Of a stretch of 64,000 nt of DNA, positions 2,150 through 3,681 are shown one piece after another. A program made the position numbers and the translations under genes. The DNA is from Parcubacteria group bacterium Gr01-1014_8 (GTDB taxonomy: Bacteria; Patescibacteriota; Minisyncoccia; Phycocordibacterales; UBA2100). Positions within the stretch are counted from its first letter, which is position 1. Every line of letters begins with the position of its first letter. The DNA is taken from the NCBI GenBank assembly GCA_007376385.1, contig VMGC01000002.1:32001-96000 (forward strand), in the 5' to 3' direction. The notes under the pieces were generated by a model. The model was not told where the DNA came from. It worked only from the letters and a program-made list of their open reading frames with translations, and made no database searches.

Positions 2150-2306
2150 GGCCACGCTCGCTTAGAGTAGTCAATGCAAAAAAAGTCTTACATTTGGCGG
2201 CAAAACAACTTATAGTTACATCAGTAAGCTCTGGATTAGTATAGAAGTTAAGGAATCCGTTTTGCGGGCGTAGTTTAGTGGCTCTGTTTTGGATTGCGGC
2301 CGGTGT

Positions 2307-2377
2307 GCGGGATTGGTTCAGTGGTAGAACGACTGCTTCCCAAGCAGTAGACACGAGTTCAATTCTCGTATCCCGCA
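2307..2377 (+). tRNA. tRNA-Gly (anticodon CCC)
   Basis: Canonical cloverleaf: GCGGGAT/ATCCCGC acceptor, GTTC..GAAC D-stem, anticodon loop TTCCCAA, T-loop TTCAATT; no encoded CCA. Confidence 0.85.
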
Positions 2378-2394
2378 CAGCGACCGCAAAAAAT

Positions 2395-2418
2395 GAAAAG
2401 CTCCTTAAACCGCTTTTC
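2395..2418 (+). terminator. Hairpin GAAAAGC-N10-GCTTTTC followed by a T-rich tract, directly downstream of tRNA-Gly
   Basis: Perfect 7-bp stem seen in sequence. Confidence 0.35.
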
Positions 2419-2534
2419 ATTCCCTCGCATTAGAAAGGGGTTCGATTCCCCTCGCCCGCACAAAAAATGTCCACAGGGCGCTTAACCAAGGCGTGGTATA
2501 CTGTCTTTCCTTATAAATAATTGTCTGTAACGTT

Positions 2535-2810: not shown

Positions 2811-2883
2811 CCCCGCGTAGTTCAATGGATCAGAACGGACCCGTCCTAAGGGCCTGATCTCGGTTCGATTCCGGGCGCGGGGA
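2811..2883 (+). tRNA. tRNA-Arg (anticodon CCT)
   Basis: Cloverleaf with C1:G72 acceptor (CCCCGCG/CGCGGGG), D-stem GTTC/GAAC, anticodon loop GTCCTAA, T-loop TTCGATT. Confidence 0.7.
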
Positions 2884-2968
2884 ATAGTGTGTGGATAATC
2901 GATTCTGTCCGGCCTGAAAGGTACTGTACAATGGCGGGTAGCGATATATTAAATAATTATTCATACCT

Positions 2969-3196
2969 ATGAAAAAGCATCTATTGAAGTGTTGGTTGTG
3001 GAAAGCATTGTGGGCGCTCAGCGTGATTGCGTTCGTGCTTGCGTGGGTGAGCGTGATCCGGCGCGCACCGATAGGTCAGTTTGATCCGCTGTTCTTGTTC
3101 TGGAATGCGCTTATTCTCGGAGTTCTTGCAGTTCCAATAAAGTTAGATTGTCAGACATGTGAGACATGCACGGTGCCCGCTCCTCGGCAGATGTGA
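2969..3196 (+). CDS. Hypothetical small membrane protein
   Basis: ORF with two hydrophobic segments; no recognisable motif. Confidence 0.4.
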   Translation: MKKHLLKCWLWKALWALSVIAFVLAWVSVIRRAPIGQFDPLFLFWNALILGVLAVPIKLDCQTCETCTVPAPRQM

Positions 3197-3199
3197 GCC

Positions 3200-3517
3200 A
3201 TGCAGATAGACGACTTGGATAGAACAGAGCTGGAACAGATATTGAAGCTTACGAAGGAGAATAATCGCATGCTGCATGCGATGAGGCGCAACGCGTGGCT
3301 GGGCGGTATCTTTAAGGTCTTGCTTTGGGCGGGACTTATCATTATCCCGTTCTGGCTGTATATGCAATATCTCGCGCCTGTTATGCAGAGCGCGATGGAC
3401 ACCATGGATCAGCTGCAGGGAACCGGTGCCAAAGCTCAAGCGCAATTCAGTGACCTCAATAACGCGATGCAGAAGCTTCAGGATCTGTACCCGCAATATT
3501 TTCAGAGTAAACAGTGA
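3200..3517 (+). CDS. Hypothetical membrane protein
   Basis: ORF with a central TM hairpin; starts 4 nt after the previous ORF. Confidence 0.45.
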   Translation: MQIDDLDRTELEQILKLTKENNRMLHAMRRNAWLGGIFKVLLWAGLIIIPFWLYMQYLAPVMQSAMDTMDQLQGTGAKAQAQFSDLNNAMQKLQDLYPQYFQSKQ

Positions 3518-3681
3518 AGCGCGAGCTTCACTTTTAAGAACCCACGGTTCTCAACGCTCGCTCTGCTCACTGCTCTCCTCCTCGGGAAAACTACAGTTTT
3601 CCCGACCCCTTTCGAACTCGCTTTACCTTATTCAAGGCTAAGAACATAGATGGCAAGCGAGGTAGATGGTATAGTGCCTCA

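Follow-up and report, generated by a model that had tools for sequence, protein, structure and literature searches.

How does a complete tRNA gene come to lie between the two ends of another tRNA gene, and which parts of such an arrangement still yield a functional product? The question is raised by a locus of Parcubacteria group bacterium Gr01-1014_8 (assembly GCA_007376385.1), which was analysed within a 64,000-nt stretch of contig VMGC01000002.1 (positions 32,001-96,000, forward strand). This whole stretch is referred to here as the window, and positions given without a further label are those of the window; loci from other sequences are designated by L numbers. LepA relatives place the host among the Paceibacteria (Parcubacteria, CPR), and the genes neighbouring the locus encode LepA, DivIC, glutaredoxin, HSP20, PrsW and ValRS.

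The outer parts of the locus are homologous to an intact tRNA, and the arrangement recurs in relatives, where it is layered and decays. The most satisfactory explanation is that the resident tRNA-Gly(CCC) has probably, though by no means certainly, been replaced repeatedly through the insertion of a promoter-less tRNA cassette, which left a tRNA-like shell behind.

A complete tRNA gene between the ends of another

The outer pieces, GCGGGCGTAGTTTAGTGG at 2264-2281 and AGGGGTTCGATTCCCCTCGCCCGCA at 2436-2460, lie where a preliminary description of this DNA had placed them, and their acceptor strands GCGGGCG and CGCCCGC form the perfect complement that it had reported, pairing at 7/7 positions. 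Each piece occurs once in the 64-kb window with up to three mismatches allowed, while shuffled sequences lead one to expect 0.05 and 0.00 occurrences, respectively. An assembly artefact is excluded, since two further assemblies, ERZ27284378 and SRR8863434, which come from different samples, match 2200-2540 at 100% identity.

The complete tRNA-Gly(CCC) said to lie between the two pieces was also recovered, by ARAGORN at 2307-2378 and by the Rfam tRNA model at 2307-2377 on the forward strand. It belongs to RF00005, which it matches at full length (model positions 1-71) with 74.5 bits against a threshold of 29. Its acceptor strands read GCGGGAT...ATCCCGC (hereafter the A type), the discriminator is A and the CCA end is not encoded.

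The damaged outer gene

The outer gene is a second tRNA-Gly(CCC), of a type that begins with GCGGGCG (C type) and stands intact at the same promoter in some relatives. Both of the pieces named in the preliminary description are indeed tRNA ends, but the gene can be traced well beyond them, nearly in full, in three segments on the forward strand. The first (2264-2281) covers tRNA positions 1-19, is identical at 17/18 nt to the intact C-type tRNA of L005, L007, L091 and L095, and comprises the acceptor strand GCGGGCG, TA, GTTT as the D-stem 5' strand, and AGTGG, with which the D-loop starts. The second, which is degenerate (2390-2401, positions ~21-31 when aligned to the intact C-type tRNA), reads AAAATGAAAAGC where the intact gene has (A)GAATGAATGC, and represents the D-stem 3' strand, G26 and the anticodon-stem 5' strand. 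The third (2420-2460, positions 32-73) matches the intact C-type tRNA of L005 and L007 at all but 1 of 34 nt, and is composed of TTCCCTC (anticodon CCC, T37, C38), GCATT, AGAA, AGGGG-TTCGATT-CCCCT, CGCCCGC and the discriminator A. The outer molecule had been taken for a TCC type, but its anticodon-loop remnant, TTCCCTC at 2420-2426, is that of a CCC type. The same correction applies to the intact tRNA-Gly(TCC) for which a comparison with relatives had been proposed: an intact tRNA-Gly does stand alone at the locus in L007 and L095, where its 5' end GCGGGCGTAGTTCAGTGG and 3' end GCATTAGATAGGGGTTCGATTCCCCTCGCCCGCA each show one difference from the outer pieces of the window, but the isoacceptor is again CCC and not TCC.

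Within the outer anticodon arm, 18-19 inserted nt (2402-2419) separate the second segment from the third and create a hairpin at 2392-2421 on the forward strand with a 10-bp stem (AATGAAAAGC / GCTTTTCATT) and a 10-nt loop (TCCTTAAACC). The fold is present in all 8 related modules discussed below. A hairpin had been described at 2395-2418 and called terminator-like; it exists within slightly wider limits, but the terminator reading was abandoned, as the forward strand carries no T run and the terminator scan is silent, and the T run on the reverse strand follows no gene of that strand. Two further ideas concerning the loop were also set aside. Its pairing with the outer D stem (UAAAC/GUUUA) or with an upstream TTAAGGA is possible in one or two loci only and is not conserved, and an anti-Shine-Dalgarno-like CUCCUUA in the loop, seen in 5/8 loci, was taken as a coincidence.

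The outer molecule (2264-2460) fails the tests for a functional tRNA, since it forms no cloverleaf even when an intron is allowed and offers no exons that can be joined into a valid tRNA. In the native sequence, ARAGORN in intron mode (-i) and at low thresholds reports the inner tRNA only, and an Rfam search of 2150-2560 with E values up to 10 gives no tRNA match for the outer parts and, besides the inner tRNA, only noise. Neither Intron_gpI nor any other ribozyme family was detected in 2150-2560 at E values up to 10 or in the whole window at the gathering threshold. When only the tRNA-bearing insert is removed in silico, ARAGORN at its default threshold calls nothing; a second removal of 18 nt is needed. 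Once 2282-2388 and 2402-2419 are both taken out, a tRNA-Gly(CCC) of 71-72 nt is called, and the product of joining 2264-2281, 2390-2401 and 2420-2460 is likewise called as a tRNA-Gly(CCC); its positions 37-38 are T and C, with no purine at 37. Some odd ARAGORN calls on the in silico constructs (a tRNA-Phe with a 3-nt intron, and a 4-base anticodon TTAA in the hairpin loop) were disregarded, as they depended on intron mode or on lowered thresholds. Covariance models thus reject both halves in their native sequence, an outcome that the preliminary description had regarded as evidence against a tRNA derivation, but the comparative data still show that both halves originate from a tRNA.

Because of the interrupting cassette, the 18-19-nt insert in the anticodon arm and the pyrimidines at 37-38, the outer gene makes no tRNA. 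It cannot be spliced into a working molecule and represents a gene that has been damaged rather than a functional one with an interruption. In the window, its acceptor and T arm carry zero damaging changes. Among the origins that had been suggested, an intron-bearing, permuted or split tRNA finds no support, the intron mode of ARAGORN returning nothing beyond the inner gene, and only an ancestral tRNA-Gly broken by the insertion of a second tRNA gene agrees with the data, the broken gene being of the CCC type.

The inserted cassette and the promoter

The main insert of the window is 108 nt long and consists of a leader, the inner tRNA and a trailer. Single-sequence and consensus folds together with covariation delimit the left arm CTCTGTTTTGGATTGCGGCCGGTGT at 2282-2306 and the trailer CAGCGACCGCAA at 2378-2389, both on the forward strand. 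Bases 2294-2305 of the left arm (TTGCGGCCGGTG) pair with the trailer, which forms the 3' strand of a leader-trailer helix that lengthens the inner acceptor stem. According to an early idea, the left junction might lie in the anticodon loop: the left arm of L085 (GGAATGATGTCC) resembles positions 21-35, yet positions 22-31 are also present in the 3' module.

A promoter scan points to a putative promoter at 2187-2221 on the forward strand, with a -35 element CTTACA (2187-2192), a -10 element TATAGT (2211-2216) and an overlapping GTTACAT (2215-2221), the latter of which aligns with a TGnTAnAnT extended -10 motif of relatives. This motif lies ~13 nt upstream of the outer 5' piece in L085, L012, L093 and L091, and it also precedes the single tRNA of the non-nested loci L007 and L011. 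Because the motif precedes the outer 5' piece or the lone tRNA, the outer gene is taken as the original occupant and the inner gene as one without a promoter of its own.

Recurrence in related Paceibacteria

Both shell ends and the same 3' module are found in five other Paceibacteria loci, L085, L093, L091, L005 and L012, and the acceptor types exchange inner and outer roles between loci. In L085, a C-type shell surrounds an A-type tRNA and the outer T arm has been deleted between two CCCTCG repeats, while L093 has a CA type (GCGGGCA/TGCCCGC) outside an A type. L091 shows the reverse of the window arrangement, with A outside C. A TA type (GTGGGTA/TACCCGC) lies outside a C type in L005, and in L012 a C type lies outside a TA type (GCGGGTA), the 5' piece being down to 9 nt and accompanied by an extra element. 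Two additional loci retain the module and a 3' piece: L096 combines it with a chimeric outer 3' piece and has no clean 5' piece, and L099 carries the module and a 3' piece with a broken outer T stem, whereas the 5' piece is absent and the promoter directly precedes the inner tRNA. L096 also contains a GC-rich palindromic stretch, GCCCGCCGAAGCCCGCTATGGGCGGGCGAAGGCGG, at 60-110, upstream of the inner tRNA and at the site expected for the outer 5' piece, and its inner tRNA has an A5.C68 mismatch.

The same 19-nt insert and the TC of positions 37-38 recur in all 8 outer 3' modules (those of the window, the five both-ended loci, L096 and L099), so the 3' module has a single origin. The T-arm and acceptor type differs among the modules, and it always matches the 5' piece where one survives (6 loci). 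The upstream flank GGAATCCGTTTT is common to the window, L005 and L091. In L090, the whole tRNA locus is inverted (2872-3066), with an intact C-type tRNA-Gly(CCC) on the reverse strand and a decayed A-type 3' remnant alongside, and the P0004 contig has 122 nt between the flanking genes, which leaves room for one tRNA at most. L092 ends within the tRNA and L098 ends ahead of it, so neither adds DNA for the region.

Searches beyond these relatives returned little. A first, overly strict metagenome pattern gave 0 matches, and a second one found one real locus (L096) and one chance match in a coding region (L097). The nested layout was absent from viral contigs in three scans, and blastn comparison with phage and plasmid records matched the inner tRNA only, the architecture being absent.

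Layers and decay

Aligned with its relatives, the window shows three layers: a decayed A type, then a C type, then the intact A type. The oldest is represented by a decayed 5' piece of an A-type tRNA-Gly(CCC) at 2229-2247 on the forward strand, recognized by alignment to the outer 5' piece of L091, in which CTCTGGATTAGTATAGAAG corresponds to GCGGGATTCGTTCAAGAA of L091. It is followed at 2248-2263, on the same strand, by the leader TTAAGGAATCCGTTTT, which goes with a C-type tRNA in nested relatives: the leader is found unchanged in L091 and almost unchanged in L005, immediately 5' of the intact C-type inner tRNA in both. The whole of 2229-2263 aligns with the outer A-type 5' piece plus leader of L091. 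The 3' partner of this third layer is absent from the window, and a decayed A-type 3' end survives downstream in L085 and L090.

Loss of the shell takes several forms. L085 has lost the T arm, L099 has a broken T stem and no 5' piece, L096 has no clean 5' piece, and partial or decayed shells occur in L086-L089, where only a decayed 5' piece is left behind the promoter, in L090 and in the third layer of the window itself. Since the shell has been lost or damaged in all these ways, it is evidently dispensable.

Fold, conservation and age

The 197-nt stretch from the outer acceptor strand to the outer 3' end is predicted to fold into an outer acceptor stem, a long helix with the inner cloverleaf at its tip, the 10-bp hairpin and an outer T arm. 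The fold has a free energy of -81.9 kcal/mol (z = -5.6), and the consensus fold of five loci agrees with it. In an alignment of the five both-ended loci, 7/11 pairs of the leader-trailer helix are changed on both sides; the covariation score exceeds that of 499/500 shuffles and slid controls score lower, with 5 sequences only contributing to this result. The hairpin is 97.7% paired across the 8 modules and shows compensatory changes as well as paired indels. Furthermore, the outer acceptor is 7/7 paired in six loci, and the sole two stem changes of L005 preserve wobble pairing.

LepA identity offers a measure of the distance between these genomes. The window, L085, L091 and L090 are mutually 91-93% identical, L093 and L099 share 93%, and the rest range from 71 to 87%, and every pair is 20-44% identical at four-fold degenerate sites, which are thus saturated even within the closest clade. 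Vertically inherited neutral relics should be scrambled because of this saturation. Even so, the window and L085 differ at only 2/18 nt of the outer 5' piece, and the hairpin and the CATTCCYTCG junction show hardly any variation. Either the cassettes were passed between lineages recently or the shell is under selection.

Origin of the nested locus

If the replacement reading is correct, an older C-type gene (GCGGGCG...CGCCCGC) sat directly behind the promoter of the locus until a promoter-less cassette, made up of leader, complete A-type tRNA-Gly(CCC) and trailer, interrupted it. The cassette would have entered by recombination with the DNA of relatives at conserved blocks in the D-loop and the anticodon loop. 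Outer and inner genes would then be co-transcribed as one RNA from the old promoter, and the normal tRNA-processing enzymes would cut out the inner tRNA as the only functional product, while the old ends, the leader-trailer helix and the hairpin would fold into a tRNA-like shell, a by-product and relic that decays. Within this family of Paceibacteria the process would be a recurrent one: the same module is present around varied combinations of acceptor types, layers build up and old ones decay. Against this reading count the near invariance of parts of the shell in spite of saturated sites, the covariation of the leader-trailer helix and the undamaged outer acceptor and T arm of the window. 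Moreover, no insertion mechanism, enzyme, target duplication or donor was identified for the cassette; GAATGA-like motifs on either side of the insert were considered as a target-site duplication and rejected as inconsistent.

Several other explanations have to be weighed. The outer molecule might be a genuine interrupted tRNA (intron-bearing, split or permuted) that yields a second working tRNA-Gly, as its perfect 7-bp acceptor, its canonical T arm and the closing helix that joins the ends of the insert could suggest. The host is a bacterium, however, ARAGORN in intron mode and Rfam find neither such a tRNA nor a group I core, removal of the insert leaves the second insert, T37, C38 and an imperfect anticodon stem with no cloverleaf, and the shell decays in relatives, all of which makes a second working tRNA extremely improbable. 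The matching ends could alternatively be leftovers of flanking copies, produced by a local tandem duplication of the tRNA gene and two subsequent deletions. Partial copies of tRNA ends are in fact common in these genomes (the tRNA-Val 5' end of the window, the repeats of L011 and L031 and the tandem tRNA-Leu genes described below), but at least six loci would each have had to undergo two matching deletions, the types of the inner and outer genes differ and their combinations vary by locus, the insert is surrounded by an outer gene that is collinear and nearly whole, the promoter adjoins the outer 5' piece, and an intact three-gene tandem array was not seen among 99 loci. Such a history is very unlikely.

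The possible mobility of the cassette and a possible function of the shell call for more attention. The insert could be an active non-autonomous mobile element, namely a selfish tRNA cassette with inverted-repeat ends that is moved by a recombinase or transposase acting in trans, targets tRNA-Gly(CCC) site-specifically and compensates for the broken gene with its own tRNA copy. Consistent with this, one and the same module occurs in several types of resident tRNA, its right junction falling at a single point of the anticodon loop, and L093 and L099 have the same inner tRNA and almost the same trailer, while their outer 3' pieces are very different. The leader/trailer inverted repeats, several of them with a TTGCGG...CCGCAA core, also fit the idea, as do other small inserts in relatives that bring replacement tRNA ends (element E and the L011 repeat, see below). 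It nevertheless seems improbable, as target-site duplications were not found, the left junction and the sequence of the inverted repeats vary by locus and covary, unlike a fixed transposase binding site, no recombinase is present among the neighbouring genes of the locus, the 64-kb window holds one copy, and viral contigs, phages and plasmids gave no matches. Rather unlikely, but deserving of consideration, is a maintained functional RNA, in which the shell would serve as a tRNA-like scaffold around the inner tRNA for its processing or stability, for instance through RNase P, RNase Z or RNase III entry, 3'-end definition or stabilization of the transcript, or would constitute a two-piece tRNA-like molecule. 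The low z-score of the fold and its agreement across five loci, the covarying leader-trailer helix, the compensatory changes and paired indels of the hairpin stem, the 7/7 outer acceptor of six loci with the wobble-preserving changes of L005, and the near invariance of CATTCCYTCG despite saturated synonymous sites all speak for such a role. On the other hand, the shell is dispensable in L085, L099, L096 and the decayed older layer of the window, a single plain tRNA suffices in the close relatives L090, L086-L089 and L095 and in the P0004 contig, the helix covariation comes from five sequences only, and the covariation of acceptor and T arm is inherited from real tRNA types and hence not independent evidence. 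A combination of the two ideas is conceivable, if doubtful: a selfish, self-propagating tRNA cassette would home into the tRNA-Gly(CCC) genes of relatives, by recombination after DNA uptake or with a recombinase in trans, the resident would be destroyed and the cassette would become indispensable, with the leftovers kept as a processing scaffold. Compared with these, the reading as a layered fossil of tRNA gene replacement is the best one, and there is a credible chance of a residual function at the RNA level.

Comparison with known systems

Genomic islands and prophages integrate into tRNA genes and supply a replacement of the displaced segment, which results in a duplication of the att site. 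The present locus resembles such integrations in that a tRNA gene is the target, the incoming DNA keeps the tRNA working, and a fragment of the original gene, its 3' part from the anticodon loop onwards, stays behind downstream. It differs from them in the size and content of the insert, which measures ~110-140 nt and brings a whole tRNA rather than a 3' segment, without an integrase or cargo. In addition, the inner and outer 3' parts differ in type, which sets the locus apart from this class; the original 5' part also remains, so that the arrangement is nested and not an attL/attR pair, and the working tRNA is wholly new, not a chimera.

Group I introns have been described at position 35/36 in the anticodon loops of Patescibacteria tRNAs (PMC13011429). 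These share with the present case the phylum, the involvement of the anticodon arm and the failure of standard finders to report the interrupted gene, but the present locus lacks a group I core, its main insert is itself a tRNA and its exons give no valid tRNA; tRNA-Gly and nested tRNAs are not mentioned in that work. Disrupted tRNA genes of archaea and algae, which may be split, tri-split, permuted or interrupted by multiple introns (reviewed in PMC4033280 and PMC4390854), likewise have halves that lie apart in the DNA and a helix that draws the ends of the intervening sequence together. They are functional, however, and are processed at bulge-helix-bulge motifs by a splicing endonuclease, whereas the present host is bacterial, the outer gene is damaged and the intervening sequence is itself the functional tRNA, which places the locus outside this group.

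The succession of layers, of which the older are more decayed, is reminiscent of nested ('Russian doll') insertions of transposable elements and of tRNA pseudogene relics. Unlike in those, the inserted unit is a tRNA gene that enters its own functional homologue, and no recognisable transposase, terminal repeats of conserved sequence or target duplication are seen here. The insert does not behave as a MITE or DNA transposon either, as its inverted repeat differs and covaries between loci, no duplication is consistent and the window holds one copy. A tmRNA or two-piece tmRNA is also not supported, since ARAGORN finds none, the T-arm matches score 14-16 bits against thresholds of 47-70, and the acceptor has G3-C70 where a tmRNA would carry G3:U70. 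None of these known systems puts a whole tRNA gene inside its own homologue, and full-text literature searches on nested or split bacterial tRNAs returned no description of this layout.

Other elements attached to tRNA genes

Relatives carry a further non-coding unit of 130-170 nt, termed here element E, directly 3' of genes for tRNA-Gly, tRNA-Arg and tRNA-Leu; it does not occur in the window. Copies are located at L006:6121-6291, L012:6767-6913, L020:6326-6478, L073:6562-6711, L013:about 3476-3627 and L031:737-875, and variants at L066:about 9160-9290 and L093:about 3270-3420. The element has a 5' hairpin, an invariant GAAUCGAA preceded by the T-stem 5' strand of the neighbouring tRNA, and a GGGUCG...GACC helix, and the segment with the T-stem strand pairs with a terminal copy of the last 15-20 nt of that tRNA. 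In the consensus structure, 20/32 pairs are changed on both sides. The element has no Rfam match, and a hammerhead assignment (CUGANGA...GAAA) was rejected on account of a misfitting core in L006 and L012. Element E may be an undescribed tRNA-attached RNA or a mini-element, and it suggests a wider, undescribed class of tRNA-attached elements in these bacteria.

Partial copies of tRNA genes were observed at several other places. In the window, the real tRNA-Val at 11954-11882 is preceded, 62 nt upstream, by a 16-nt copy of its 5' end and the bases before it (tATGCGCGGTTAGCTC; 11955-12036, reverse strand), which resembles the footprint of a further small insertion or duplication at a tRNA gene. 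In L011 (6243-6370), the last 6 nt of tRNA-Gly(CCC) and a 12-nt trailer (CCCGCACTAAGAACGAGC) recur ~95 nt downstream, around a hairpin, representing another type of small insert at this tRNA. Downstream of tRNA-Leu(CAA), L029 (261-347) and L031 (607-693) have a second tRNA-Leu-like gene, with the same acceptor and T arm but an enlarged D region (87 nt); ARAGORN makes no call for it. In L031, the tRNA 3' end and its ~40-nt terminator are also duplicated around the E element. Orphan copies of acceptor 5' strands are present at L021:7676, L060:6570 and L054:7417, 50-360 nt upstream of complete genes, and those of L021 and L060 include the next few nt of the tRNA (GCCGAGGTAGCTG for tRNA-Phe and GCGGGATTAGTT for tRNA-Gly).

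A DnaA-box-like motif lies at 2470-2477 of the window and at about 7590 in L005, 6295 in L006, 2460 in L095 and 1575 in L085. It shortly precedes the -10 element of the gene that follows, which encodes glutaredoxin in all of these except L005. The relatives have TGTGGATAA at this site (reverse complement TTATCCACA), and the window and L085 have TGTCCACA.

Implications

At present, tRNA finders report the inner gene only, and shells of the kind described here could pass for introns, split tRNAs or terminators. If the replacement reading is true, the tRNA genes of these reduced genomes would turn over through invasion and replacement by their own copies, leaving datable layers, which would represent a new mode of tRNA gene evolution, and perhaps also of horizontal exchange, in the Candidate Phyla Radiation. 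The conservation of the shell and helix beyond that of neutral DNA points to a possible tRNA-like scaffold that a bacterial pre-tRNA would provide for its own processing. Should the combined view of a selfish cassette and a retained scaffold prove true, these bacteria would possess a tRNA-within-tRNA system with its own evolutionary dynamics.
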